IMG/VR virus record: IMGVR_UViG_3300017970_000189
DNA: 64,000 bases
Origin: an uncultured virus (IMG/VR IMGVR_UViG_3300017970_000189)
Lineage: Duplodnaviria > Heunggongvirae > Uroviricota > Caudoviricetes
Strand: one strand, 5' to 3'
Shown here one piece after another: positions 4,087-53,100 of the stretch. Under the pieces are notes generated by a model. The model did not search any database. It was not told the DNA's origin and saw only the letters and a program-made list of their open reading frames with translations. Made by a program: the position numbers and the translations under genes. Every line of letters starts with the position of its first letter. The first letter of the stretch is position 1.

Positions 4087-5422
4087 GTCTTTTCTCCATC
4101 TATGGAGATCACCCGGCCGGCTGATAATTCAGTACGCAACCTCCAGTCTTCTCCACACCCACGGAGATCGCCCCCGGATCCGCAGCCATCCGAACCTCGA
4201 GCGATGGTCTTCTCCCTACGCCCGGAGATCAACCTCCCTTGAACCCAACGATCGCGGGCATGTACTGGTCTTCTCCATATGCACGGAGATCGCCCCGTCG
4301 TCCGACTTCAATGGATAGCGTGCCGGAGTTTTCTCCATACGCACGGAGATCGCCCGCAGGTTAGCCTAACACCCTACGAGACTCCCACACCTTCTTCCTC
4401 GCACGAAGATCACCCCAGCACTAGCGTGGTCATACACCACCCCTTCGGCCTTCTCCTCACACACAGAGATCCTTCGGTCGCGAGCAGCTCCTGCATGCAC
4501 TCCGCCTCGTTTTCTCCACTCGCGCGGAGATCAACCTCCCTCGAGCTTTTCCGCTTCCATGCTGGTGAGGTCTTCTCCATGCGCACGGAGATCACCCCTT
4601 CGAACCTTGGCCTCCAACCTCTACGACTTTGTCTTCTCACTTAGAGATTGTCCACACCGAGGCGTAACCGGACGGTCTCTCCAGTCGCCTTCTCCAAATA
4701 CATGGAGATCATTCTGCGGCTGAATAGCCGATGTACCCCTTAAAATCACCTTCTCCCACAGCCGGAGATCGCCCCCATCGCCCCTGGGAAGCCTTCTCCT
4801 CTCCTTCTATCTTCTCCCTCACGCGGAGATCACCCAACCGCCAGCACCGGCCGCGATCAGCCACGCGAGTCTTTTCCCACGCGCGGAGATCACCCTGGAA
4901 CGGCTTGGGCGGAATGGCTCTAAGTTTTCTCCAGACTCGCGGAGATCACCCGGTGTTTCGCTTTACGAAGTCCGGATTCAGGACATCTTCTCCACCTGAA
5001 GATTCCCCTGGCGGACCGCTTAATGTTAGTGAACCCCTCGACTCTTCTCTCCGCATCTCCGGAGATCCCCCCGCCTCCTACGCCTTGACGCTGATCAGCG
5101 GATTTTTTCTCTCGAAGCAGAGATTATCCAGGCGTCGGCAATAGACCGGCCGTTTACCGGAAGCTTTCTCCCGTACGGAGATGACCCCTCGTGATTCCTT
5201 GGCCTACCGCTCGCCTAGTTTCCTTCTCTGGTTACAGAGATTTTCCTGCGCGAATCGACCGCGTGGACCTTGGAAACCTCGTTTCTCCAGACGTGGAGAT
5301 CCTCCTGCGGACATCCTGACGTTATTCGGAGTGCGTGTGTTTATTCTCTACTCGAGAGATAATCCTTGGCCCATACAGGCGAGCGGCGCAGACGTGATCC
5401 CTTCTCCTTACGGAGATTTATC
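4087..5422 (+). CRISPR. orphan type I-E-like CRISPR array, 23 degenerate repeats and 22 spacers
   Basis: consensus about GTCTTCTCCACNCGCACGGAGATCACCC; period about 55-61 nt; starts near 4087,4146,4207,4268,4328,4389,4448,4509,4570,4631,4687,4748,4809,4869,4924,4985,5043,5103,5163,5221,5280,5341,5399; spacers unique, mostly 32-33 nt. Confidence 0.88.
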
Positions 5423-15529: not shown

Positions 15530-16056
15530 GGCTTGAGAACTACCCCTAGACCGCTGTTGTGCGGATAGTTCCTGAAGGCATAGTTCGGATGCTCCTTCAG
15601 GAATTCATTGATCGGATCCAAAACCCCGTGAGCATGCGTCGTCGTGTCGTGAAAGATCAGCCTCCCCCCGGGCCGCACCAGCGGCTCAAAGGCCACGATC
15701 TCCTTCTTCGTATGCTCGTACTGGTGGGAAGTGTCCACGAATACAATGTCCACAGGGACTGCCTTGTCCCACTTCGCCGCGAATTCGATGTCATCCCCCT
15801 GCACGAACCTCCACCGGGGCAGCATCCCGTACACCTTCACCATCTCCTGCGTCATCAAGCACGGATCCACGTCCACGCTCCAGAGATGCCCCTCCGTCTG
15901 ATGCACCCCCTCAAGCAACGCCACCGTGCTCTCCCCGCTCCGGACCCCGAGCTCGATCACCGTCTTCGCCTTCATCTCGAGCACCATGTTGTAGAGCGGA
16001 ACGAGATGCTGATTGATGTCGGTGGGTCGTTTCGAATGAATTTGCGTATACTTCAT
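15526..16056 (-). CDS. class I SAM methyltransferase (Methyltransf_24-like)
   Basis: IELGVRSGEST, DIVFVDTSH, GGRLIFHD; alternative start at 16098. Confidence 0.85.
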   Translation of the reverse strand: MKYTQIHSKRPTDINQHLVPLYNMVLEMKAKTVIELGVRSGESTVALLEGVHQTEGHLWSVDVDPCLMTQEMVKVYGMLPRWRFVQGDDIEFAAKWDKAVPVDIVFVDTSHQYEHTKKEIVAFEPLVRPGGRLIFHDTTTHAHGVLDPINEFLKEHPNYAFRNYPHNSGLGVVLKP

Positions 16057-16102
16057 CGGCCCCTCATCCCCGCCTGCCTGAATCTTCCTGACGATCATTT
16101 TA

Positions 16103-16657
16103 TCATGGAACCCTGGGTTTTAGAATAACTCCCATGCCGCTATTATACGAGGCATTCTCGAATCCATACCCTGGATGCCCCTTCAAGAACTCCTGGATCG
16201 GCTTCATCACCCCCTCCGGGTGCGTCGTCGTGTCGTGAAAAATCAACACTCCTCCCGGCCGGACGATCGGCTCGAACACCTCAATCTCCCTCTTCGTGTG
16301 CTCGTACAGATGCGACGTGTCCACGAATACGATATCCACCTTCCGGCTCCGGTCCCACCCCTTCCCGAACTCGATATCGTCACTTCTGACGAACGTCCAT
16401 CTCCCCCCCAGCCCGTACCTCTCCACCATCTCCCGCGCCTTCGGACACTCCTCGATATCCACGCTCACCACCCGCCCATCCGTCCGATTCACCCCCTCCA
16501 GGAACGCCACCGTGCTCTCCCCACTCCTCACCCCCAGCTCCACCACCAGCTTCGCGCTCATCTGGAGCGTGATGAAATAAAGCGAAGTCAAGTGCTCGTT
16601 GATGTCCGTCCGCTTCCTGGAATGTTCCAACGTGTGTTTCATGGGCCTGGCCGACAT
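16103..16657 (-). CDS. class I SAM methyltransferase, tandem paralog of the previous gene
   Basis: VELGVRSGEST, DIVFVDTSH, GGVLIFHD. Confidence 0.85.
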   Translation of the reverse strand: MSARPMKHTLEHSRKRTDINEHLTSLYFITLQMSAKLVVELGVRSGESTVAFLEGVNRTDGRVVSVDIEECPKAREMVERYGLGGRWTFVRSDDIEFGKGWDRSRKVDIVFVDTSHLYEHTKREIEVFEPIVRPGGVLIFHDTTTHPEGVMKPIQEFLKGHPGYGFENASYNSGMGVILKPRVP

Positions 16658-16687
16658 ACATACCGATACTGCGATTTTCTTGGTTAA

Positions 16688-17575
16688 TTACTTTCCAGTT
16701 ACTCTAGAGAAGAGATTATTCCATCGACTAATAAACTTCTTACTACAAAAAATATCTCGCGCACTAGTCTGAGCCACACGTCCCATATTAAGCGCTAACT
16801 CCGGATCCTCAAGGAGCTTCGCCAACCTCAAAAGCGCTCCATCAACAGTATCTACGACATAGCCATTGATTCCATCAGCGATTAGATTTCTAAGGTTGAT
16901 TGGCCTGAAGGTAACTATTGGCAGGCCTGCCATCATAGCCTCTGCTACGCTAATGCCAATAATTGGGCCCGGGTTAAAATAGACTCGAGCATGGCTATAG
17001 ATATCCATCAGCTTTTCGTATGGAATAACTCCTAAAGCTCCAGGAAGGTCCTCATTACCAGACCCAACCAGTGAAAGTGGAATGAATGTATTGACAGTGA
17101 CATAAGGGCAATGACCCTTATCCCATCGCCTTCCGATACGCTTTCCCACGGTAAGCACGATTCTGGTGTCACCAACATGAGGAAGAAATGGAGAGTCGTC
17201 CACCCCCATCTCGATTACAACCTTCTTAGCTGGGTCCCTCATAGTCCAACGTTCAGAAACTTCCTTAGCTAGGAATGCCACCGCAGAGGACCGTTCCTCG
17301 ATCTCTTCAGGGAAAATTCCTTCTGAACAATCCGCGATAATCGCAAAAATCATAGGACCTTTGAAGGCTTTCAACTTCTCGAACATAGCCCAGTGGTTAT
17401 TAATTAGGATGCAATCAAACTCCCCCTCGGGCTGCTCCGTGAACTTCCAATTGTCGGGCAGTTTTCGAATAAGAGGATCCCACTGCCCTTGGTCTCCTAC
17501 AACAGAAAATTCATGACCTGTTTTCGCTAGTTCTGCATCATAACTGGTGTGAGCGTGATGGGTCAGTATCCTCAT
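16688..17575 (-). CDS. GT4 glycosyltransferase
   Basis: EAMMAGLPIV, IADGINGY. Confidence 0.8.
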   Translation of the reverse strand: MRILTHHAHTSYDAELAKTGHEFSVVGDQGQWDPLIRKLPDNWKFTEQPEGEFDCILINNHWAMFEKLKAFKGPMIFAIIADCSEGIFPEEIEERSSAVAFLAKEVSERWTMRDPAKKVVIEMGVDDSPFLPHVGDTRIVLTVGKRIGRRWDKGHCPYVTVNTFIPLSLVGSGNEDLPGALGVIPYEKLMDIYSHARVYFNPGPIIGISVAEAMMAGLPIVTFRPINLRNLIADGINGYVVDTVDGALLRLAKLLEDPELALNMGRVAQTSARDIFCSKKFISRWNNLFSRVTGK

Positions 17576-18297
17576 TGAAAGGATTCCGAAGGTTTAATTC
17601 CTTCATCCCACCACAGCCTCAGCTTCTTGGGCCAGGGTACCGGCTCCACCGCCACCCCTTTGTCCGGCCATCCATCGATCGTCGCCCGAGCCGATTCGTC
17701 ATCCCCAGATTTTTCTCCAAGACAGTAATGAAGATGATGATGGAAATGACCGTAAACCCGAATCAACTGAAGCCCAGCCGGCTGCACTGGAACCGGATGT
17801 CTCTCGGGATTCCCGTCATATTTAGGATGAGATCTCCAAGCTAAATTTTCCGAAATCGCTACATTCCTTTTCGTTGGCCATAACCGTGGATGCCATTCGG
17901 ATGCTCCAAAAACATAAGGCTTTCCGTCCTTCATCCAATGAGCGGTCATTACCTCCACCATAGCTTTTTCAGCCCAAGGGAAAAGCTGATCGACTGATTC
18001 CTTTACATAGAATTCATCTGAATCCAAGTACACTTGAACATCTGCAGCAAACGCCCGCGCTTTCCTCATCGCCCTCTCAAGAGCGCTTCTAACCTTGAAC
18101 TCCTTCCAGCCATGCCCAAAAACAGGTTCATGAAGCCAGATCACGCTATCCGGAAGTTTCGAGAACTTGATCGCGCGATCTGGAGGTGAGGTGTCGAGCA
18201 CCAGATGCGATCCCATCTCGGCATGGTGCTCAATCGCACCGAGAAGGAAATCGTAATCCCGATTGCAAGTTACGGTGAAGAAGCAGACCTTAGGCAT
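17572..18297 (-). CDS. GT-A-like glycosyltransferase
   Basis: YLDSDEF DxD motif, late His cluster, operon context. Confidence 0.55.
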   Translation of the reverse strand: MPKVCFFTVTCNRDYDFLLGAIEHHAEMGSHLVLDTSPPDRAIKFSKLPDSVIWLHEPVFGHGWKEFKVRSALERAMRKARAFAADVQVYLDSDEFYVKESVDQLFPWAEKAMVEVMTAHWMKDGKPYVFGASEWHPRLWPTKRNVAISENLAWRSHPKYDGNPERHPVPVQPAGLQLIRVYGHFHHHLHYCLGEKSGDDESARATIDGWPDKGVAVEPVPWPKKLRLWWDEGIKPSESFQ

Positions 18298-18301
18298 CGA
18301 C

Positions 18302-18643
18302 CTAGGATGACACCCTCATGGCCGGCAGGCCCACCAGCGTCGTCACGCCCGTGCGGCCCCCAAGATAGAGCACCCCGAGCAGCGCCGAGCCTACGCCACC
18401 AACCCAGCCGGCCACCTTGAGATAGTCGTTCCCTTTCTCCCTCAATCCCGTCCGGATCCCCACCCATGCTGCGGCACCAGTGATCGTCAGCACTGAGACC
18501 ATTTCGATAAACCCAGGAATCCCAGTGTATCCCGTGAACAAGAAATCCGGTGCAGGAGGAGGCACCGCAGGCGTTGATGGCGATGTTGACGCTTGAGCCA
18601 AGGCTGTATATACCGGACGATATGCCTGTTGATAAGCGATCAT
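18302..18643 (-). CDS. membrane protein, WxGxxxGL(K/R)EKG hairpin family (ALAQ)
   Basis: MIAYQQAYRP leader; AWVGIRTGLREKG. Confidence 0.75.
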   Translation of the reverse strand: MIAYQQAYRPVYTALAQASTSPSTPAVPPPAPDFLFTGYTGIPGFIEMVSVLTITGAAAWVGIRTGLREKGNDYLKVAGWVGGVGSALLGVLYLGGRTGVTTLVGLPAMRVSS

Positions 18644-18672
18644 AAAATTCCTCAAGGCATTACAGTCTTAGG

Positions 18673-19608
18673 TCATTTCCCTTCAAATGACCCACCCTTT
18701 AGAGCTTCTCTTCCATCCAACTTTACAGATACATCGTCCACCCAAAGAGTCCCTTTTTTGGATGCCATCGAAACTCCGAACTGGAATCTTGCCGCATTCC
18801 TTGGGATATCTGCCTTTGTATAAACCCTCTGCCAGAAAGGGGTATCCATAGGTATAAATGGTCCTATAGTCGAAAAACCAACTCCATTTTGGTCAAAAAG
18901 ATTTACATAAACATGATCATTCCCACTGTCAGTACCATCTGCCAGCACATAAGCTGATACTTCTATCGTTTTCCCGGATACTGGGATCAAATCGGTACTA
19001 AAACCGCTAGTAGCATTTTTTATTTTCTCATCTGAAGGTAATACTTTTATCGAATATGATCCCACATGTGAAACAGTGCCATCTAATATTGGCGCTCTAG
19101 ATCCTGGAGATGTTCCGGGATTCCATCCTGTCGGCAATTGTTTTTGTGAAGTTCCGGGAGGCCTTGCAGCAGCCAGCTTTAACCCCTGCTCCCTTGTTTT
19201 CATCTTCCATAGAGGATCAAGATCAGGCCAACCCTCTGCATACCAGTATGAGGCACGGTCATAGAAAACCCTAAATAACGCAGGAAACTTTTTAGCTGCA
19301 GATACCCATTCATCACCCATTCCAACCTTCTTTGGACCTGAATCTGTATAAAGTGGTGCGCGTTCATGCTCTGCCAAAGTTCTTAATATTTGGTCTGAGG
19401 ATTTTGCCAGAAAAGGCATCGCCCCAGGATAATCTCCAAGAACGAATGCGATATACTTCCCTGCTATTGTATTCGCATCAGGATCCTCTGGCGCGGTTTT
19501 CAGTTTCTCCAAAGATTTCTTGTAGTCGGCCTCAGAGGGAAGTGGAGACGGAGGAGTAAGGAGAAGAGCTGCGCCAGCAATACCGGCAAGCGCTAATAAG
19601 ATTTCCAT
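18673..19608 (-). CDS. exported protein with Planctomycetota-type helical domain and CBM-like beta domain
   Basis: signal/TM N-terminus; PEDPDAN..GKYIAFVLGDY..LAK..GDEW..ASYWY; C-terminal GTLWVDDVSV. Confidence 0.65.
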   Translation of the reverse strand: MEILLALAGIAGAALLLTPPSPLPSEADYKKSLEKLKTAPEDPDANTIAGKYIAFVLGDYPGAMPFLAKSSDQILRTLAEHERAPLYTDSGPKKVGMGDEWVSAAKKFPALFRVFYDRASYWYAEGWPDLDPLWKMKTREQGLKLAAARPPGTSQKQLPTGWNPGTSPGSRAPILDGTVSHVGSYSIKVLPSDEKIKNATSGFSTDLIPVSGKTIEVSAYVLADGTDSGNDHVYVNLFDQNGVGFSTIGPFIPMDTPFWQRVYTKADIPRNAARFQFGVSMASKKGTLWVDDVSVKLDGREALKGGSFEGK

Positions 19609-19695
19609 TTCATAACTCCACAGAGAAATTATATTACCAAATTCTTAACCTAGCAATACATTGTAGACAACCACCGGAAACCGACCAGAACAATC

Positions 19696-20466
19696 TTAAT
19701 CATTCAAAACACCACTATCTCCATTGAGAATTTTTCTTCGTCCAACCTTTACCGCGCGCGTGTAACAAGGAAGGCAGTCCACAAAAACCGGGGAATCATT
19801 CATCCATTTTCCATAAGTCTGCCAACCTCGATTTATCCTATCCTCCGCATTATTCCTCATCTGCTCTGGGCTTCGATATAAATAATGCCGTAATGGGTAG
19901 CTAGTAAGCCTCGTTTCCCCACAATTCGTTGGGATCGTACAAAAATGATTCCTTATGTTATATTTCGTACGACTATCGTATCTGAATTGCCGCAATTCGA
20001 CCCAGCCAGGAAAACATGCCCAAGTCACTTGGTCGACGACTGACTTTGATTCATCATACTTATATGTGTTCTTCTCTGAGATATGTAAAAAAAAATTGAC
20101 CAACCTCCATCCTACAACACCAAAACCTTCTTTAGCTGACTCCTCTGCTACATCGCGAGGATTAACATCGAGAAATATCTCATCCGAGTGAAGTAGAGTT
20201 ATCCATCCGCCATCTGGATGGTCTTTTTGAATTTTCTGAAGAAGAAATTGGCGTGCCCCATCACGGATCGGCTTGTATTCAGGAGGAAGATGTACATCTC
20301 GGACGTAAAATACTATGTTCTTGTGTTTTTCTATAATCTGTTTCGGCTTACCCCAACACGATCCATCTAGTGCATAAACAGCGTCGAAAAACTGGCAATT
20401 ATTTTTTAGAACTTCATCGAGCACATCAAGATCGCCCCGAAACATTAGTAATCCAAAATGCTTCAC
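19696..20466 (-). CDS. GT2-like glycosyltransferase (Glyco_tranf_2_4-like)
   Basis: YALDGS, WITLLHSDE, LRHYLYRSPEQ. Confidence 0.65.
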   Translation of the reverse strand: MKHFGLLMFRGDLDVLDEVLKNNCQFFDAVYALDGSCWGKPKQIIEKHKNIVFYVRDVHLPPEYKPIRDGARQFLLQKIQKDHPDGGWITLLHSDEIFLDVNPRDVAEESAKEGFGVVGWRLVNFFLHISEKNTYKYDESKSVVDQVTWACFPGWVELRQFRYDSRTKYNIRNHFCTIPTNCGETRLTSYPLRHYLYRSPEQMRNNAEDRINRGWQTYGKWMNDSPVFVDCLPCYTRAVKVGRRKILNGDSGVLND

Positions 20467-21083
20467 AATAACTCACCCGGAAAATGTATTAAATAATTAT
20501 AGAATGCTAATGTTCGGTCTATAAATTCGAACTCCTCGGGATACTTATCGTAAATTTCTCTGAAAAACAAAAAGTCCTCAATACCCGCTTTGGTTAGATC
20601 ATAACGAAGATCACCAATCAATTTCCTGTGAACAACAAATTGTGAATTATCAATATGGCATGGTCTCATATTCTCATGCTTAGCCCTCAACAACCCGTGG
20701 ATATCCCAGCGTTGCTGATTGAACACAAATGCCTTTTTTTTATCACACCGCCCAAAGGCCTCTTTCATCTCACAAAACAAACCTGGGTGAACAATGTTAT
20801 CATCATCCAAAATATAGACAAACCCATCTTCAATTAAATCAATCCCGTAGTTTTTTTGTTTTATACCAAAACGGGATGAACCTCCCGAAAAGGTAACCAT
20901 CCTAATCTTTATCCCACATGAAGATCTAAGTGCATCATCGATGTAGTTAGGGATACTAATTGGAGCGTCTACAATCATTAACCAACAAACATCAAGATTC
21001 ACGTCACAATTAGATTCCTCCATAGAGGCTAGGATAGTTGGTAAATTATTCAGGCGTGATACTGCTGTCACAACTGTCAACAT
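20463..21083 (-). CDS. GT-A glycosyltransferase (GT43-like DDDN motif)
   Basis: VVTAVSR, WLMIVD, GFVYILDDDNIVHP. Confidence 0.65.
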   Translation of the reverse strand: MLTVVTAVSRLNNLPTILASMEESNCDVNLDVCWLMIVDAPISIPNYIDDALRSSCGIKIRMVTFSGGSSRFGIKQKNYGIDLIEDGFVYILDDDNIVHPGLFCEMKEAFGRCDKKKAFVFNQQRWDIHGLLRAKHENMRPCHIDNSQFVVHRKLIGDLRYDLTKAGIEDFLFFREIYDKYPEEFEFIDRTLAFYNYLIHFPGELL

Positions 21084-21089
21084 GCTTAA

Positions 21090-21881
21090 TTATTTTTCGA
21101 AGTTATCGATATGTTCTCTGATTAACATGACTCTATCTTCTAGGACTTGAACTTCTGGAAGTTTTCCTTTTACAGATTCATATGCATCTGCCATGACCTT
21201 ATTTCCTACGTTCCTAAATTTCTCAATCTCGAAATCCAGTAAACCAAACGCATGCGCATATATCGGGCCGCAGGCATGAAACACTTTCATTCGCGTACAA
21301 AGGCAGCCGAGCCGACCAAGCGACTTCAACTTTCCCCACACAAAACTACCAAGGTAAAAATGACGTTCATAGGGAGCCTCGAGAAGAATCGGCAGAATAC
21401 TTCTCCGGTAAATACTAAACCAACCATCAATAGGTCCATCATAAAGACCATCCTTAAGATTGATATTTACATAGGAATCCATTCCGGGCCTTGCGCCCGT
21501 AGTAAATTCGTCTTGCCAAACATCGGAAACAAGCTGGTCGACATTCTTATTTCTAGCAAATATTTCAAGAGCGATTTCACCTATTCTTTTTGATATAAAC
21601 AACACGTCTTCATCCATCTGCACAATAAAGTCATACTTCGCCTCCAAAAATAGTTCCTTATACGCATTCATCCCGATATTTCCAGGGGTATGACCTACAA
21701 TTCGTACTGGCACCCCGTCTCTTTGTTTCTTCGAGATGTAATTGCGATATTCACCATCCTTATCTAAAAAGTTCATCCACAAAAGAATCTCATAAGGGCG
21801 ACAAGTAGTCTTACGGGACAATTCCTCTATAACAAGCATGCTATAGTCCGGCCGAATACTAACAACGCAATAAGAGATCAT
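21090..21881 (-). CDS. GT2-like glycosyltransferase
   Basis: YEILLW, NIGM, IVQMDEDV. Confidence 0.65.
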   Translation of the reverse strand: MISYCVVSIRPDYSMLVIEELSRKTTCRPYEILLWMNFLDKDGEYRNYISKKQRDGVPVRIVGHTPGNIGMNAYKELFLEAKYDFIVQMDEDVLFISKRIGEIALEIFARNKNVDQLVSDVWQDEFTTGARPGMDSYVNINLKDGLYDGPIDGWFSIYRRSILPILLEAPYERHFYLGSFVWGKLKSLGRLGCLCTRMKVFHACGPIYAHAFGLLDFEIEKFRNVGNKVMADAYESVKGKLPEVQVLEDRVMLIREHIDNFEK

Positions 21882-21941
21882 TTTGGCAATCCCAATAATC
21901 GATAATACAAATGCTGCTTCAGCAAACAGGTAAAACCTGTT

Positions 21942-22673
21942 TCAGCAGGAATTCTTTTGCCGCAAAATCGGATCATGTTCGCAGTAATTCAAAGCCACTT
22001 CCCGGTTGTATGGCCTCGAGAACTGCTCGTGATCCGGCTCGCCTCCCCATTTCCGGATATAGTAGTCCCTCAGATTCCCGGTGATTTGAGCGAACTTCTT
22101 CTCGAGAACCGGATCCGACTTCACCGTCGAGCTCCCCCAGTGGGGAGCTTCACCATGGACAAACTTGAAGTCGGGGATGCCGACGGCCTTCGCTCCGCTC
22201 AACTTCACGCGCCGGAAATGATCCAAGTCTTCATAGTAGGCAGGAAAGAAATTTTCATCGAAGAATCCGACCGTTTTCAGTCCAAGCTCCGTCATGCAGA
22301 AAATCGAGTACCCGTCCGCACAGACGATCGAAACATTTGGATCCTCATCCAAGGCTCTCGAGATCTTCCCCACGTTTCCGGGCATGAATTGGATGTCGTT
22401 TCCGCAGATCAACCAGGGACTGGAAGAAAGAGTCATGATCCGGTTCCAGGATCCGGCGCAGCCCAGGTTCTCATGGGTTTCGGTACGAATCTGCCGAAAC
22501 AGCTTGGAATTGGGAATCTTCTTTTTCTGGATCTGATCGATCGCCTTCGCCACTTCTCCGCTTGTCCCGTTATTGATGATGAAGAGCGTATCAATCGGGT
22601 GATCCACGCTGGCCACGCATCTGAGAAGAAGGTCGCCGCGGTTGACGATCGGGATCCCCAGCGTGCTGATCAT
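21942..22673 (-). CDS. GT2 glycosyltransferase
   Basis: IINNG, NLGCAGSWN, GFFDENFFPAYYEDLD. Confidence 0.8.
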   Translation of the reverse strand: MISTLGIPIVNRGDLLLRCVASVDHPIDTLFIINNGTSGEVAKAIDQIQKKKIPNSKLFRQIRTETHENLGCAGSWNRIMTLSSSPWLICGNDIQFMPGNVGKISRALDEDPNVSIVCADGYSIFCMTELGLKTVGFFDENFFPAYYEDLDHFRRVKLSGAKAVGIPDFKFVHGEAPHWGSSTVKSDPVLEKKFAQITGNLRDYYIRKWGGEPDHEQFSRPYNREVALNYCEHDPILRQKNSC

Positions 22674-31365: not shown

Positions 31366-31986
31366 CTACGCCTCAAGCTCGACTTCCCAGTATGCACGGC
31401 TCAGGAAGTGCTCCCAGGACTCGCGCCGCATCTTGGGCGGCACCTGGACCAGCGTCTTCCAGCTCGGCTTCTTCGGCACCTTCCGGAGCCTCATGCCGGC
31501 CTGTTCGGGCGTCCGGTCCGCCTTCTCCTTGTTGCACTCCAGGCACGCCAGGACCGTGTTCTCCCAAGTGGACTTTCCACCCTTCGAACGCGGGACGATG
31601 TGATCCATCGTCAGATCCTCATGGTTCGTCGGCTGCGCCCCGCAATACTGGCACGTATAGCGGTCACGCTTGAACAGGTTCCTCCGGGAGAACACCACCG
31701 ACCGCTCGCCCTGCTTCTCGTAGGTCGTCACCATGATGACCTCCGGAGGCACGAGAGCCAGATGACAGGACCGGATCCTGCCCTCACCGAACTCCTTCTG
31801 GGCCTTCGACACATCGTTCCAGGAGTTCAGCTCATGGGTCGCAAAATCGTTCTTCGCGTCGATGATGAGAGCGTGACCCTTAGCGACCAAGCCGATTGCG
31901 TCCTGAACCGTCGTCACCCGCAGGGGGCTCCAAAGCTTATTGAGCACCAGCACGGGTCTTTCCAGGACCTTCGCTTCCGCCGTCAT
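31366..31986 (-). CDS. HNH endonuclease (McrA-like)
   Basis: VLVLN, FSRRNLFKRDRYTCQYCG, DHIVPRSKGG, CLECN. Confidence 0.9.
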   Translation of the reverse strand: MTAEAKVLERPVLVLNKLWSPLRVTTVQDAIGLVAKGHALIIDAKNDFATHELNSWNDVSKAQKEFGEGRIRSCHLALVPPEVIMVTTYEKQGERSVVFSRRNLFKRDRYTCQYCGAQPTNHEDLTMDHIVPRSKGGKSTWENTVLACLECNKEKADRTPEQAGMRLRKVPKKPSWKTLVQVPPKMRRESWEHFLSRAYWEVELEA

Positions 31987-33092: not shown

Positions 33093-33169
33093 TGGTACCC
33101 CCGGTAGGACTCGAACCTACATTTCCCACGTTCGTAGCGTGGTCCGTTATCCAATTACGGGACGGGGGC
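33093..33169 (-). tRNA. tRNA-Arg(ACG)
   Basis: cloverleaf, loop CT-ACG-AA, encoded CCA. Confidence 0.9.
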
Positions 33170-33763
33170 CCCTTTGTCTTGCTGAGGTTCTCCTGAATGC
33201 TGGCGCTCCAAATGGCGAGCGAGAATCTTCCTGGCTTGTTTCTTGAATAGCTGGAATATCAAGATCCTTCGGATTCCCGTCTTCTGCGTGGTCGCCGTCT
33301 CAAGCGTCTGGCAGAAAACGATCAGCTCCTCGTAGGTCCGGTCCGATTTCAGCCCATTGCAGGTGTAACAAGCAGCCACCAGATTCTGATCATCGCTCTT
33401 TCCTCCCTTGGCACGGGGGTAGAAGTGATCGATCGTCTGAGCCACTTCTCCGCAAAAATAGCACGGATCCTTCAGGATCCTGGCTCTCCGGCTATCCCCT
33501 ACCTGAGCTCCCTTGTACCGTTTCTTCTCACGGACTTCCGCGGCTGATCTCCCGGTCGCCTTGACGAACAGCGCCCCGTTCATGTCCCGAGTCCACCCGC
33601 AAAGGCAATCCCACGCCTGACACCCTCCATGGCTGGCGTGAATGATCCTCCCATGCGAGCATTCCGGACACCGATTGACCTCTCGCTTCTTCACCGGCAA
33701 CCCATTCCCTTCCGCATCCGGCCATAACGGATGAAACATGGCTTCCTCCAACGGCTCTCTCAA
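33155..33763 (-). CDS. HNH endonuclease with N-terminal Zn-binding motif
   Basis: CYFCG..TIDHFYPRAKGG..NLVAACYTCN. Confidence 0.8.
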   Translation of the reverse strand: MREPLEEAMFHPLWPDAEGNGLPVKKREVNRCPECSHGRIIHASHGGCQAWDCLCGWTRDMNGALFVKATGRSAAEVREKKRYKGAQVGDSRRARILKDPCYFCGEVAQTIDHFYPRAKGGKSDDQNLVAACYTCNGLKSDRTYEELIVFCQTLETATTQKTGIRRILIFQLFKKQARKILARHLERQHSGEPQQDKGAPVP

Positions 33764-37071: not shown

Positions 37072-37147
37072 TGGTAGGCCGGGTGGGAGTCGAACCCATC
37101 GTCGAGCGCTTATAAAGCGCCTACTCTGACCGTTGAGCTACCGGCCC
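37072..37147 (-). tRNA. tRNA-Ile(TAT)
   Basis: loop TT-TAT-AA, A73, CCA end. Confidence 0.85.
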
Positions 37148-42136: not shown

Positions 42137-42139
42137 AGA

Positions 42140-42445
42140 TGGACGCGCGCTATAAGCCGGGTCCTGTTCCCATTTTCGGGGCGGAAGTCATCAATCTAGA
42201 CCGTGCCTTGCGACACAGCTCAAGCAGCCTACCCGCACGCGATCACGGTCGAGCCAACCCGCGTGCCTATTTGGCTTTGCTCCAGGTGGGGGTTGCCGCG
42301 TTTCACCCCTATCTCTTTCGAGATAGGACTCGTCTCTGTGGCCCTGTCCATCGGCTTGCGCCGTGCGGCCGTTAGCCGCCACCTTGCTCTATGGAGCCCG
42401 GACTTTCCTCCGACCTTGCGGCCGGCGACTTCCCGCTGCGCATCC
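42140..42445 (-). ncRNA. rnpB: RNase P RNA (bacterial A-type, compact)
   Basis: GAGGAAAGTCCGGGCT ... GGGTGAAACG ... ACAGGACCCGGCTTA; terminal P1 pairing. Confidence 0.93.
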
Positions 42446-46608: not shown

Positions 46609-46614
46609 GTATTT

Positions 46615-46728
46615 TGATGCATGGCTACACGAATCGAACGTGCGCGGATATATCCAACGCTTTGCGGCATTAGAGTCCGGATGACCCCCATCTCCCGACG
46701 CGCAAACGCCGGGGGCCATCAGCCACGC
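46615..46728 (-). ncRNA. tRNA-like RNA (8-bp acceptor, T arm, greatly extended D region)
   Basis: GCGTGGCT/AGCCATGC stem; GCACG-TTCGATT-CGTGT; 3' end ATCA. Confidence 0.55.
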
Positions 46729-47968: not shown

Positions 47969-48058
47969 TGGAGGAGACGGCGCGACTTGCACGCGCGCCC
48001 CAGTTTCCCGGGTCCGACGCTTTCAAGGCGTAGTGGCACGCTCACTGCCTTCGTCTCC
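47969..48058 (-). tRNA. tRNA-Ser(TGA)
   Basis: loop CT-TGA-AA; T-loop TGCAAGT. Confidence 0.8.
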
Positions 48059-48152
48059 TGGCGGAGGGCGGAAGTCTTGATCTCCACACCCGGGTTGACC
48101 GAATGCCATCCGCTTTCGAGGCGGCGGTGGGCTCCCACCCACTTCACCCTCC
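48059..48152 (-). tRNA. tRNA-Ser(CGA)
   Basis: loop CT-CGA-AA, V arm. Confidence 0.78.
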
Positions 48153-48223
48153 ATAAGGCGCGAGGAAGGCTTGGACGGCTCCGTGTCTTGGAGTACCGGA
48201 TCAACACATCCTCGCGCAAAGCT

Positions 48224-48298
48224 TGGTACCTGCGGCCGGACCTGCCCCGGCATCCTCCGCTTATGAGACGGATGCACTTCTCATTGTGCTACGCAGGC
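48224..48298 (-). tRNA. tRNA-Met(CAT), elongator- or Ile2-like
   Basis: loop CT-CAT-AA; T-loop GGCAGGT. Confidence 0.75.
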
Positions 48299-48334
48299 AT
48301 GTGATAGAATAGTTCCTGAAGTGACCCGCCCTTG

Positions 48335-48364
48335 AGCCCCGGGATGTTCCCGGGGCTTTTTTTT
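48335..48364 (+). terminator. intrinsic terminator oriented against the tRNA array
   Basis: AGCCCCGGGA-TGT-TCCCGGGGC followed by a T-tract. Confidence 0.65.
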
Positions 48365-48437
48365 GGAGCCGCCATCCCGAATTGCACGGGAACCGCCTCG
48401 CTACAAGGGAGGCAGACTACTTTTATCCTATGGCGGC
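48364..48437 (-). tRNA. tRNA-Thr(TGT)
   Basis: loop CT-TGT-AG. Confidence 0.78.
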
Positions 48438-48443
48438 CAATTA

Positions 48444-48519
48444 TGGAGCCGGCGGCGGGTGTTGATCCCGCACCTCAGCATTACCAATGCCGTGTACAGA
48501 GCCGCTATACTACGCCGGC
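48444..48519 (-). tRNA. tRNA-Thr(GGT)
   Basis: loop TT-GGT-AA. Confidence 0.8.
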
Positions 48520-48536
48520 GAAATCAATCGAGAGAT

Positions 48537-48610
48537 TGGTGGGCACGGGTGGAATCGAACCACCGATTCCTCGATGTCATCGAGGCGGGTTACCTCTATC
48601 CCACGCGCCC
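48537..48610 (-). tRNA. tRNA-Val(GAC)
   Basis: loop AT-GAC-AT. Confidence 0.85.
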
Positions 48611-48688
48611 TGGTCGGGCTCCGCGGACTTGCACCGCGCTTAACTCCTGTACCCCAAACAGGCGGGTCGCTATCTACCCCTGAGCCCG
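48611..48688 (-). tRNA. tRNA-Pro(GGG)
   Basis: loop TT-GGG-GT. Confidence 0.82.
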
Positions 48689-48696
48689 GATTTTTT

Positions 48697-48772
48697 TGGA
48701 GGGACCGCGGGGAATCGAACCCCGTCTGAGTGGGCCACGGCCACTCGTGCAAAACCATTACACTTCGGCCCC
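48697..48772 (-). tRNA. tRNA-His(GTG)
   Basis: loop CC-GTG-GC, extra 5' G. Confidence 0.8.
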
Positions 48773-48778
48773 AAATCT

Positions 48779-48853
48779 TGGTCCGCCTAGAAGGAGTCGA
48801 ACCTTCGTCGTTCGGTTATCAACCAAATGCTCTGACCGTTGAGCTACAGGCGG
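48779..48853 (-). tRNA. tRNA-Ile(GAT)
   Basis: loop TT-GAT-AA. Confidence 0.85.
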
Positions 48854-48884
48854 TTCTATTTTTGACCTACACGCCGTGAAAAGT

Positions 48885-48924
48885 TGGACCGGGTAGCGGG
48901 AATCGAACGCTCCTCGCCACGTTG
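48885..48924 (-). pseudogene. 3' half of interrupted tRNA (Gly-like, U73)
   Basis: CAACGTGG..TTCGATT..TACCCGG-T-CCA; pairs with the 5' half at 49573-49604. Confidence 0.75.
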
Positions 48925-48929
48925 AATTT

Positions 48930-49005
48930 TGGAGCGGGTGATGGGATTCGCACCCACGATCTGCTCGTTGGCAACGAGCCGTGTTGGCTCCTACACTACA
49001 CCCGC
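48930..49005 (-). tRNA. tRNA-Gly(GCC)
   Basis: loop TT-GCC-AA, U73. Confidence 0.88.
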
Positions 49006-49535
49006 ATATTTGGCCGTCGAGGACGTCCATTCCCCTTGTTAAGTGCTCCGTAGTTCGGAGTTAGGGAGTGACAGTTTGGACAGATAAGCTCAAGATTTCT
49101 TGGTGAAGAATCCCTCCACTTTCCGTTCTTATGGTTTACCGTCAGAGGAACTTTCCCCGTCGTAGGATTCACAACACCCCAGCCGCACTTCTCGCACTTC
49201 GACTTGTTCTTCTCGTATAGATAGCGACGAATAGGGTTCGCAATTGACTGCCCTCTGGTTCCGTCCTCCTCACCCCTGAGCCACCGCTTGATAAAGCCCC
49301 TGTAAACAAACTCCCGATAACATCTCGGAGAGCAGTAGTCATTATCCTTATGACGATCTGTGGTATCACTTCCACAAGATCGGCACTTTGGCCTCTTTCT
49401 CAGCGGCCTTGCTGTTGAGATCCCGAACTTTGCCGCCCAGTATCGGATATTTGCGATGGAGCACCTCAACTTAGTTGCAGCCCCCTGTAGCGTATGCCTC
49501 TGCTTGAGAGCGCGTCTAAGAACCGAGCACTTCAT
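48996..49535 (-). CDS. HNH homing-type endonuclease
   Basis: YCSPRC, CEKCGW, LTVNHKNG, NLELICPNCHSLT; lower GC. Confidence 0.88.
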   Translation of the reverse strand: MKCSVLRRALKQRHTLQGAATKLRCSIANIRYWAAKFGISTARPLRKRPKCRSCGSDTTDRHKDNDYCSPRCYREFVYRGFIKRWLRGEEDGTRGQSIANPIRRYLYEKNKSKCEKCGWGVVNPTTGKVPLTVNHKNGKWRDSSPRNLELICPNCHSLTPNYGALNKGNGRPRRPNMRV

Positions 49536-49572
49536 GATATTGTTATAGCATAAATGGTGTGGTCGTACAAAT

Positions 49573-49604
49573 AACGTTGCACATTACCACTATGCTATAC
49601 CCGG
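49573..49604 (-). pseudogene. 5' half of interrupted tRNA (Gly-like)
   Basis: CCGGGTA-TA-GCATAGTGGTAATGT-G-CAACG-TT. Confidence 0.75.
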
Positions 49605-49613
49605 ATTAATTTT

Positions 49614-49689
49614 TGGCTGGGGCGGAAGGGCTCGAACCTTCATAGCGGGGTCCAAAGTCCCGCGTCCTACCAAATTAGACGACACCCCA
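49614..49689 (-). tRNA. tRNA-Gln(TTG)
   Basis: loop CT-TTG-GA. Confidence 0.88.
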
Positions 49690-49690
49690 C

Positions 49691-49782
49691 TGGTGCATGG
49701 GAGAGGATTCGAACCTCCAAGCCTTTCGGCGGGCGGGTTACAGCCGCTTGAGCTCGTTGTCCCAGACCTGCTCAGCCCATGC
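49691..49782 (-). tRNA. tRNA-Tyr(GTA)
   Basis: loop CT-GTA-AC, V arm, enlarged D loop. Confidence 0.82.
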
Positions 49783-49793
49783 AGATGAAGATT

Positions 49794-49869
49794 TGGTGGA
49801 ACCGACCGGCATCGAACCGGCAACCTCCTGCTTGCAAGGCAGGCGCTCTCCCAATTGAGCTACGGCCCC
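49794..49869 (-). tRNA. tRNA-Ala(TGC)
   Basis: canonical; G3:U70. Confidence 0.93.
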
Positions 49870-49877
49870 AGGGATAG

Positions 49878-49952
49878 TGGTGGATCCAGAGGGAGTTGCA
49901 CCCTCACTTCCGCGATGCGAACGCAGCGGTCTCCTGTTGATCCTATGGACCC
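49878..49952 (-). tRNA. tRNA-Ala(CGC)
   Basis: loop TT-CGC-AT; G3:U70. Confidence 0.82.
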
Positions 49953-49996
49953 AGACTAAGAGATTTGAAAGAGGAAGAAGTCTGCGCTTGAAACCG

Positions 49997-50179
49997 CTAA
50001 GGTACTCCGGTCACCGGCCCCAGAACCGGAGGATACCCGAACTCGGGAACGACTCCCGGTCCGGCCACTCCGATGTCCGGACCTACTGAGCTCGGAGGAG
50101 AGATCCCAAGTGCAACGCCGATGACGGGCGGATAAATATCGGGACCCACCCCACCGATGACGCCCAATTGTGGATTCAT
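49997..50179 (-). CDS. Pro/Gly/Val-rich peptide with VGPDI repeats
   Basis: SD gagg; SSVGPDIGV shared with 50188..50550. Confidence 0.55.
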   Translation of the reverse strand: MNPQLGVIGGVGPDIYPPVIGVALGISPPSSVGPDIGVAGPGVVPEFGYPPVLGPVTGVP

Positions 50180-50187
50180 GATAACCT

Positions 50188-50550
50188 CTAAAGAATGAAC
50201 GGAGGGTTGTTCGGTCCTGTTGGCCCCAGGGTCGGAGGTTCAGGAGTCGTATCCGGCGGAAACCCCTGAAAGACGAACACTCCAAAATCAGGACCTGGAG
50301 CATCCGGGTTGGCTGGAGGAACCGTTTGAGCCTGTCCCACGATCGGAGGAAGCATGGACTGGTCGATCGGCGTCACGCTGACGCTCGTATCCACCCCGAT
50401 ATCCGGTCCTACACTTGAAGCAGGCTGCAGACCTTCGACAGGACCAACGTCACTGAAAAAGAACTCGTCTTCCGGCGTGACGCTTGGACCCTCGGGACCC
50501 AAGCCGGGCCCGATGATGCTCGCGCTTTCTGGTTCCTCGATCTCATCCAT
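50188..50550 (-). CDS. acidic Pro-rich protein with GPD repeats (IVGQ)
   Basis: start reassigned to MDEIEE. Confidence 0.55.
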   Translation of the reverse strand: MDEIEEPESASIIGPGLGPEGPSVTPEDEFFFSDVGPVEGLQPASSVGPDIGVDTSVSVTPIDQSMLPPIVGQAQTVPPANPDAPGPDFGVFVFQGFPPDTTPEPPTLGPTGPNNPPFIL

Positions 50551-51186: not shown

Positions 51187-51262
51187 TGGCACCACCGAGG
51201 AGACTCGCACTCCCTAACACCGGCTTGACAAGCCGGCGGCTCGACTCTTTGCCTTCGGTGGT
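51187..51262 (-). tRNA. tRNA-Asp(GTC)
   Basis: loop TT-GTC-AA, G73. Confidence 0.82.
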
Positions 51263-51946: not shown

Positions 51947-52021
51947 TGGACCGGGCGACGGGAATCGAACCCGCCATCTTCTCCTTGGGAAGGAGACGTG
52001 TTACCGATACACCACGCCCGG
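51947..52021 (-). tRNA. tRNA-Gly(CCC)
   Basis: loop TT-CCC-AA, U73. Confidence 0.9.
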
Positions 52022-52668: not shown

Positions 52669-52742
52669 TGGACGGCCTGACGGGTACCGCCCCCGCGTCC
52701 CCTGGGTGGAAACCAGGCGCTCTACTATTGAGCTACAGGCCG
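52669..52742 (-). tRNA. tRNA-Gly(TCC)
   Basis: loop TT-TCC-AC, U73; T-loop GGCGGTA. Confidence 0.8.
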
Positions 52743-52750
52743 AAATGGAA

Positions 52751-53100
52751 TGGTGGACCCGCCGGGAGTCGCACCCGGGTCTCAGCCAAGTCGTCAGGGG
52801 CGTCTACGCGCGTAGGCGGCGATTTCTTCTCGGCCTCGGCGCGGGCACCGCCGCCCTCGCTTCGGCCATATTCCGGATTTGATCTCGGCTTCCTTCTCCC
52901 GGACTCTTCAGAATGCCCAGCCGATTATTAACGTCCTTCCATGCCGATCGGCGTAGACACGGCGGACGTCGCGGTCAGGCCGCGAGAGCGAGGCTGCCCT
53001 TGGCAGTTGATTGTTTAGCCGGCTTTTAGCCTGGCCAACCGGCCAACCAGGACGCGCAGCTTGCCTTTCTCCTTAGTTGATCGAAATCTAGTTCGGGCCC
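52751..53100 (-). ncRNA. ssrA: tmRNA, tag peptide (A)AKGSLALAA*
   Basis: GGGCCCG/CGGGUCC-ACCA with G3:U70; AAUCAACU then GCC resume codon; tag ORF 53004-52975. Confidence 0.92.

Follow-up and report, generated by a model that had tools for sequence, protein, structure and literature searches.

An HNH endonuclease gene and an intact tRNA-Gly gene between the two halves of a broken tRNA gene in a viral tRNA array

How does a transfer RNA (tRNA) gene come to lie in two pieces, with a nuclease gene and a second, intact tRNA gene between them? This question is raised by positions 48885-49604 of a stretch of 64,000 nucleotides (nt) from an uncultured virus (IMG/VR IMGVR_UViG_3300017970_000189), hereafter called the window. 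A first-pass annotation, made from the sequence by a model, had proposed that an HNH endonuclease cassette splits a tRNA-Gly gene there at the anticodon and supplies a replacement tRNA-Gly(GCC). Overall, our analysis favours this view: with a probability of roughly 0.78, a free-standing, homing-type HNH cassette carrying a spare tRNA-Gly(GCC) has entered the tRNA-Gly(GCC) gene native to the genome at its anticodon loop, and the dead halves of that gene now flank it.

Two tRNA halves and the cassette between them

Both halves were recovered by direct reading and alignment, and were further examined by joining them by script and submitting the products to ARAGORN. The 5' half (49573-49604, minus strand, as are all RNA and HNH genes of the window located below) reads CCGGGTA-TA-GCAT-AGTGGTA-ATGT-G-CAACG-TT and corresponds to tRNA positions 1-33, namely the acceptor strand, the D arm, the 5' strand of the anticodon stem, and U32 and U33. 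The 3' half (48885-48924) reads CAA-CGTGG-CGAG-GAGCG-TTCGATT-CCCGC-TACCCGG-T-CCA and corresponds to positions 36-76, from the loop bases CAA through the 3' strand of the anticodon stem, the variable loop, the T arm and the acceptor strand to U73 and CCA. The insert between them (49572-48925) measures 648 nt, close to the 650 nt first estimated. An alignment of the halves with four full-length Gly tRNAs left only two columns empty, those of anticodon positions 34 and 35. The acceptor strands, already described as complementary, form seven of seven possible Watson-Crick pairs, and the D stem is paired at four of four positions, with one G-U. The anticodon stem is paired at four of five positions (mismatch A28.G42) and the T stem at three of five, making three stem mismatches in all; the two in the T stem had been noticed before, and the one in the anticodon stem had not.

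Joined by script, the halves were called a tRNA with a full cloverleaf by ARAGORN for all eight 7-nt-loop variants. Constructs made from shuffled halves were never called (0/5000), and nine of 5000 were called when the real 5' half was joined to a random 45-mer from the tRNA-rich window. A chance resemblance or an assembly chimera is hardly credible as an explanation. Admittedly, a split-tRNA half-finder that was written for this analysis, and which recovers the window case, yields tens of chance pairs per window when run loosely; but besides the result of the shuffles, the 5' half shares an exact 18-nt D-arm match with the Gly tRNAs of a viral contig, L007, and the halves meet their neighbours at ordinary array spacing, the 5' half beginning 9 nt past the CCA of tRNA-Gln(UUG) and the 3' half stopping 31 nt ahead of tRNA-Ile(GAU). 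Moreover, the entire split region is covered at even depth by one contig from the probable source run, and a 151-nt contig from another run, over 49525-49675, includes the 5' junction and is identical.

Most likely, the gene that was broken is the resident tRNA-Gly(GCC), since it has a glycine-type body and the array otherwise contains no second Gly(GCC). Among 337 tRNAs collected from the window and from the first loci of HNH relatives (see below), the joined body best matched Gly(CCC) and Gly(GCC) of L007 (34 and 32, respectively, with 21 for the next match), and five of the six top matches were Gly tRNAs. The anticodon arm of Gly(GCC) in L007 reads CCACG-TTGCCAA-CGTGG, and the broken gene retains CAACG-TT and CAA-CGTGG. 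Its discriminator is U73, and its unusual C1-G72 acceptor start is common to the resident tRNA-Gly(CCC) of the window (51947-52021, ARAGORN; CCGGG...CCCGG-T-CCA). The Gly set of the array consists of this gene and a resident tRNA-Gly(UCC) (52672-52742; identified by Rfam but not by ARAGORN, its T loop, GGCGGTA, being unusual), and the sole Gly(GCC) is the copy within the insert, an array content that fits the GCC anticodon originally proposed for the broken gene. We also considered a Glu identity, as an exact joint with a 7-nt loop, UUUUCAA, would read UUC; it was ruled out by the Gly-type body, U73 and the array content.

Read from the 5' half, the insert consists of a 37-nt leader (49536-49572), an HNH endonuclease gene of 179 amino acids (48996-49535), an intact tRNA-Gly(GCC) with the loop TTGCCAA, U73 and CCA (48930-49005) and, before the 3' half, a 5-nt spacer, AAATT (48925-48929). 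The right boundary of the cassette is uncertain by a few nucleotides, since the sequence AATTCAA that follows CCA is also found at an HNH-linked Gly(GCC) in another viral locus, L218. The promoter-like TTGTAC-17-TATAAC reported in the first-pass annotation is present in the leader and ends 6 nt before the ATG, but it is weak, matching eight of 12 consensus positions, and was not among the sites returned by a promoter scan. No Shine-Dalgarno motif was seen ahead of the HNH ATG by direct reading.

From its sequence, the open reading frame (ORF) is predicted to be an intact HNH (His-Me finger) endonuclease gene. It matched PHROG 1271 (E 9e-14) and scored 19.4 bits against Pfam HNH, below the cut-off of 21.4; only HNH families matched it, and no GIY-YIG domain was recognized. 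The protein carries the zinc ribbon residues C51, C54 and C68 and the HNH core residues C114, C117, H135, N147, C152, C155 and H156, and the zinc and catalytic residues were invariant in all 17 aligned sequences (the window protein and 16 relatives). In an AlphaFold model (predicted local distance difference test score of 80), a zinc ribbon and the HNH core follow an N-terminus of three helices that is poorly predicted. A Foldseek search with this model returned weak HNH-domain matches only (best E 9e-3), and no informative sequence match was found among solved structures. As first described, the gene is lower in guanine plus cytosine (GC) content than its surroundings: its GC is 51% (57% for the window) and its GC at third codon positions (GC3) is 56%, both of which are below the values of all eight other ORFs measured (GC3 57-84%, with seven of them at 62-84%).

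The inner tRNA was identified by ARAGORN and by Rfam, where it scored 60.6 bits against the RF00005 threshold of 29, and its stems are free of mismatches. The last 10 nt of the HNH ORF are also the first 10 nt of this tRNA, which bears out the early description of an intact, divergent tRNA-Gly(GCC) over the HNH stop. The cassette had also been described as lacking an intron. In agreement with this, no intron family, RF00028 included, was matched by Rfam in 48000-50500 at E ≤ 10, and only 42 nt of the insert lie outside the ORF and the inner tRNA, which leaves no room for a ribozyme. The HNH gene is a free-standing gene, and not one within a self-splicing intron or intein. Units of an HNH gene and a Gly(GCC) were also found between protein genes in the loci L175 and L218, without halves, so that this pair exists apart from the halves.

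The HNH family and the tRNA genes around it

To describe the family, we scanned IMG/VR for relatives of the HNH protein. A first scan returned 42 loci, and the 27 best of these all lie in tRNA arrays. A profile scan confirmed at least 467 relatives among 597 candidate stretches. Among the best 80, which were returned, tRNAs were present in 78 loci, and in 36 a tRNA starts no more than 40 nt from the HNH stop or overlaps it (28 on the same strand and 8 on the opposite strand). The linked tRNAs included Thr(UGU), Gly(UCC), Gly(GCC), Ala(UGC), Arg(CCU), Lys, Ser, Trp and others. Similar arrangements were observed in named phages: the stop of an annotated HNH gene (gp177) abuts the start of a tRNA-Thr in the T5-like phage HdH2, a relative follows tRNA-Thr(GGU) in Streptomyces phage Jada, and an unannotated copy lies within a tRNA array in Enterococcus phage iF6. 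The HNH family resides in tRNA arrays. Intron families were detected in none of 20 relatives' loci at gathering thresholds and in none of seven at E ≤ 0.1. The tight linkage between HNH genes and tRNAs across the family suggests that the usual unit would be a nuclease gene together with a tRNA allele that the nuclease does not cut. The array of one relative, L207, also contains a tRNA with the anticodon UUA, which reads the ochre stop (4193-4270, ARAGORN).

We then looked for split tRNAs around these genes. The half-finder recognizes tRNAs with a short variable arm and a 7-pair acceptor (6/7 in a relaxed search), so its counts are filter-dependent lower bounds. In its loose form it gave 38 matches on reversed sequences versus 29 on the real ones, and it was tightened afterwards. 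The stricter form gave only three low-scoring matches in the first 42 loci, and 13 matches in 80 new loci versus four on the reversed sequences. The intron option of ARAGORN was also tried; it returned chimeras of adjacent intact tRNAs and, after masking, missed the window case, and it was dropped.

Two-sided split tRNAs were found to bracket the HNH gene in L198, L207, L215, L241 and L250, with 20-21 of 21 possible pairs. None of these five is part of an intact tRNA, and the constructs joined by script from them were all called tRNAs (40/40). The matches in L193 and L216, which were pairings of separate intact tRNA genes, were rejected. The relaxed search yielded two further two-sided cases, L004 (on the same contig as L191) and L031. 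Overall, two types of inserts were observed: those with an inner tRNA, as in the window, L198, L250 and L004; and those without one, as in L207, L215, L241 and L031. L250 exhibits the layout of the window, with a 5' half, the HNH gene, a tRNA-Arg(CCU) over its stop, and a 3' half; its loop remnants, TT and CTAA, fit TTCCTAA minus one base, which makes the broken gene Arg-like. In L198, the broken gene has G3:U70, an alanine mark, and the insert contains a tRNA-Ala(UGC) that precedes the HNH gene. In L004, a tRNA-Thr(UGU) follows the HNH gene. In all cases the sequence of the inner tRNA is clearly unlike that of the broken gene, most so in the anticodon stem. In L207, L215 and L241, the entire 7-nt loop stays with one half, placing the break at the loop edge. 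In all eight two-sided cases, the window and the seven relatives, the break falls at the anticodon loop or beside it. The pattern first described for the window is repeated by the family elsewhere, three times with an inner tRNA.

One-sided remnants were also observed. In 11 of 83 distinct loci, the HNH stop or the linked tRNA is closely followed by an orphan T arm with its acceptor strand. Other tRNAs are followed by one in 11 of 435 cases (Fisher p 1.5e-4); of the 11 remnants beside HNH genes, one is perhaps a mis-ended tRNA-Ser, and without it p is 5e-4.

Two side observations concern the ends of these inserts. In L185/L187 (2907-2947), the TAA that ends the HNH ORF consists of U36-A37-A38 of an orphan 3' half of tRNA-Thr(UGU), the reading frame continuing into the remnant anticodon loop. 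The HNH-only inserts of L207 (2240-2890) and L215 (2422-3000) have complementary ends, AAAACTT/AAGTTTT (7 base pairs, bp) and ATTGC/GCAAT (5 bp), respectively, which may be due to chance in A+T-rich DNA or may form an end-joining helix.

Origin and fate of the halves

The halves in the window are best regarded as dead, decaying relics, a reading favoured by their stem mismatches, by the missing anticodon bases and by the loss of a half in a relative. Among the 40 tRNAs of the array, the T stem is free of mismatches in 38; one has a single mismatch, and tRNA-Met 46539, with three, was seemingly mis-parsed. Twenty-four of the 40 exhibit no stem mismatch at all. The deviating bases of the halves, A28, A50 and C52, differ from those kept in the Gly tRNAs of L007, and at the two T-stem positions the window's own Gly tRNAs also keep the bases from which the halves deviate. 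As two anticodon bases are missing, the halves cannot be joined exactly to yield a usable Gly anticodon. The loss of a half was observed in L200 (2100-2950), which is syntenic with L198 (2125-2963) at 76-80% identity. L198 contains both halves of an Ala-type tRNA around its tRNA-Ala(UGC) and HNH gene; L200 keeps the tRNA-Ala and the HNH gene, and there the whole 5' half is gone exactly, together with the anticodon-stem part of the 3' half, leaving only the T arm and the acceptor strand.

It is very unlikely that the halves still make a tRNA through a folded transcript from which the insert is excised, whether by RNase P together with 3'-end maturation of the inner tRNA or by some other nuclease, followed by sealing by RtcB or by use as a two-piece tRNA. 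In the minimum-energy fold computed for the 727-nt stretch, the acceptor strands do pair and close the structure; such long-range pairing is expected from seven G+C-rich pairs and decides nothing. An RtcB gene lies 7 kb away and had been taken as a hint of ligation, a hint that proved unspecific, as phage RtcB genes form a PHROG family of their own. The halves of five relatives are flawless or nearly so, and in L207 and L215 one side retains the entire loop and the ends of the insert could pair with each other, as described above. Against this, an exact joint in the window would give either a 5-nt loop or UUUUCAA, that is, a Glu anticodon on a Gly body, and two of the five T-stem pairs are broken. 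No intron model was found in the window region or in the relatives. RNase P and RNase Z produce 5'-phosphate and 3'-OH ends, and these are not ligated by RtcB. The archaeal type of split or intron-containing tRNA finds no match here either: only a 4-bp A-U helix, and no bulge-helix-bulge, was seen at the junctions by direct reading, no EndA was found among the 36 window ORFs scanned with Pfam, and the RNase P RNA and the tmRNA of the window are of bacterial type, the RtcB notwithstanding. Finally, L200 lost one half and kept the cassette. The flawless halves of relatives fit a recent insertion, or they could have been retained for function; in a bolder variant, some of these split genes could still give a working two-piece or re-joined tRNA.

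For the window, we propose the following course of events for the insertion of the cassette into the tRNA-Gly(GCC) gene. The nuclease or a close ancestor would have cut a gene of the resident type in or beside the anticodon loop, and the break would have been repaired by capture of the HNH+tRNA unit without flanking homology, leaving both halves as a scar with a base or two lost. The insertion would have destroyed the target and made the genome immune. The spare, which combines the same anticodon loop with another anticodon stem, would take over the decoding of GGC and GGU and would presumably remain uncut, and the halves, being dead, would decay. Such a unit would spread in co-infections like other intronless homing genes, and where flanking homology is available, homing would just replace the resident allele. 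Cutting by the enzyme at this site, in an allele lacking it, and copying-in during repair along with flanking markers are suggested by analogy with the homing endonuclease SegB of phage T4 (see below).

The cassette might instead have arrived without any cutting of the tRNA gene by the nuclease, through illegitimate recombination between array units or as a lost intron, the HNH gene being a bystander that favours tRNA arrays. We consider this unlikely. In its favour, cleavage by the HNH protein is a prediction, most relatives lie between intact tRNA genes (72 of 83 loci had no orphan half nearby, versus 11 with one), and the insertion point varies, being at 32/33, at 33/36 or after 38. A bystander, however, would hardly account for the approximately five-fold enrichment of orphan halves beside the HNH family, for breaks at or beside the anticodon loop in eight of eight two-sided cases, or for an inner tRNA that fits the type of the broken gene in three of four cases, and no ribozyme remnant was found in the window region or in the relatives' loci scanned.

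Several points weigh against the insertion of an HNH-and-spare cassette into the resident gene. No uninterrupted allele or cassette-free relative was found in IMG/VR, JGI metagenomes, INPHARED or the contigs of four runs. Exact and degenerate patterns for the 5' half, the 3' half, an intact-type anticodon arm and the spare recovered only the Gly(GCC) of L007 in IMG/VR; INPHARED returned tRNA-Ala look-alikes only; and the neighbouring phosphoesterase had relatives at no more than 48% identity, without useful tRNA context. As no close relative of the genome was found, the polarity of the insertion is drawn from the anatomy of the locus and from the relatives of the enzyme. The spare is not clearly foreign, since of 519 tRNAs collected the one it matches best is Gly(CCC) of the window itself, and the cassette pairs a weak promoter with an HNH start codon lacking a ribosome-binding motif. 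Moreover, the halves of the five relatives with 20-21 of 21 pairs do not look decayed, four of the seven relatives have no inner tRNA, so that a spare is not obligatory, and the stricter search of the first 42 loci overlooked L004 and L031, so that the counts depend on the filter. A contig joint running from 48851 to 49691, with a side of 22 letters, was also examined in this search; it is most likely a mis-laid segment of a paralogous tRNA, near copies of both sides being present at 37124 and 38019, and it was rejected.

A broader reading is tentative, and we rate it as somewhat short of an even chance: HNH-plus-tRNA cassettes may constitute a widespread, undescribed gene drive on phage tRNA arrays, acting by an intronless break at the anticodon loop, and the turnover of arrays may reflect selfish replacement and not only codon usage or defence evasion. 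Such a drive would be affordable, since single phage tRNA genes would be dispensable or replaced by the accompanying spare.

The RNA-gene island and comparison with known systems

The split gene belongs to a dense island of RNA genes on the minus strand, at approximately 33-53 kb of the window. ARAGORN identified 40 tRNAs in the window, and Rfam added four to this set: the tRNA-Gly(UCC) mentioned above and, with anticodons read by eye, a tRNA-Ala(CGC) with G3:U70 (49881-49952), a tRNA-Tyr(GUA) (49694-49782; 28.1 bits) and a tRNA-Asp(GUC) (51190-51262). A bacterial class A RNase P RNA gene (42137-42445; 229 bits in Rfam) is sandwiched between tRNA-Glu(UUC) and tRNA-Glu(CUC), and a transfer-messenger RNA (tmRNA) gene (52751-53100; 91 bits in Rfam) lies at the upstream end of the island, immediately preceding tRNA-Gly(UCC). 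The island also includes the genes for RtcB, a DnaJ-like protein and a metallophosphoesterase, as well as three HNH genes. Most of the remaining ORFs of the window had no database match, and no hallmark phage gene was found among the window ORFs by family searches. The nearest contexts of the window genes tested were viral contigs, and the source is treated here as a large phage-like genome, a label taken from this context.

Additional observations were made in the window. Two further HNH genes, of other subfamilies, are present (33155-33763 and 31366-31986). The first of these overlaps the 5' end of a tRNA-Arg(ACG) by 15 nt, which is the same stop-over-tRNA layout as in the cassette, and no split halves were seen flanking it. 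In a 127-nt gap between two tRNA-Met genes, at approximately 46612-46727 on the minus strand, we observed a tRNA-like sequence whose acceptor has eight pairs, whose T arm is perfect and whose loop, CTCTAAT, contains the amber-reading anticodon CUA. It was called by neither ARAGORN nor Rfam, and could be a suppressor-type tRNA or one resembling those for selenocysteine or pyrrolysine. Finally, GC falls to 0.40-0.50 at 16000-22000, within a block of glycosyltransferase and sugar-nucleotide genes, versus 0.57 overall.

To our knowledge, homing endonuclease genes have been thought to persist inside genes only within self-splicing introns or inteins, and otherwise to lie between genes. In the window and the seven relatives, an intronless HNH gene lies inside a structural RNA gene, and four of these eight cases bring a tRNA, apparently of the type of the broken gene, that would be able to stand in for it. 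If the proposed cleavage is true, the scars show where a large family of nucleases specific for tRNA genes cuts, the cassettes provide a mechanism for the gain, loss and replacement of tRNA genes in the arrays of large phages, and the loci offer naturally occurring pairs of tRNA genes, one sensitive to the cut and one presumably resistant to it. For annotation, orphan tRNA halves beside HNH genes would be better treated as relics than as split genes.

Among known systems, group I introns with homing endonuclease genes occur in the anticodon loops of bacterial tRNAs. They share with the cassette the anticodon-loop site and the homing endonuclease passenger, and differ from it in that the cassette has no ribozyme. 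The F-Tfl enzymes of phage T5 are reportedly encoded by HNH genes that lie among tRNA genes, a location similar to that described here, and gp177 of the T5-like phage HdH2 is a relative of the window enzyme. SegB of phage T4 is described, in the accessible part of its account, as a free-standing GIY-YIG homing endonuclease in a tRNA cluster that cuts tRNA genes of phages lacking SegB, carries neighbouring tRNA genes along during homing, recognizes a T-arm motif and has its gene between other genes (PMC2330249). The cassette nuclease is likewise a free-standing gene inside a phage tRNA cluster, but it is an HNH enzyme, so that the likeness is one of lifestyle and not of family; moreover, the cassette leaves a tRNA gene in two halves with a matched spare, a feature absent from that part of the SegB account.

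Intronless nuclease genes that lie within a gene and leave two adjacent pieces are known for phage proteins, such as nrdA of Aeromonas phage Aeh1, split by mobE (PMC3045599), and phage protein genes split by HNH genes (PMC5418858). According to the passages available from these two studies, the pieces still assemble into a working product; in the present case, an RNA gene is split, its pieces look dead, and the function would come from the spare in the insert. For long tRNA arrays in bacteria, a conserved HNH homing endonuclease gene upstream of the array has been proposed to aid array spread (PMC8421152). There, the HNH gene precedes the whole array, and neither a split tRNA nor a paired spare is described in the sections at hand. 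In the literature covered, which did not extend to subscription journals or to the 2004 T5 paper, we met no account of a tRNA gene split at its anticodon by an intronless HNH gene that brings a spare. Thus, the parts are already known, namely nuclease genes in tRNA clusters, nuclease-split protein genes and HNH genes beside bacterial tRNA arrays; what is new is the habit of one HNH family of residing in tRNA arrays, with relatives found repeatedly within tRNAs broken at or beside the anticodon loop.

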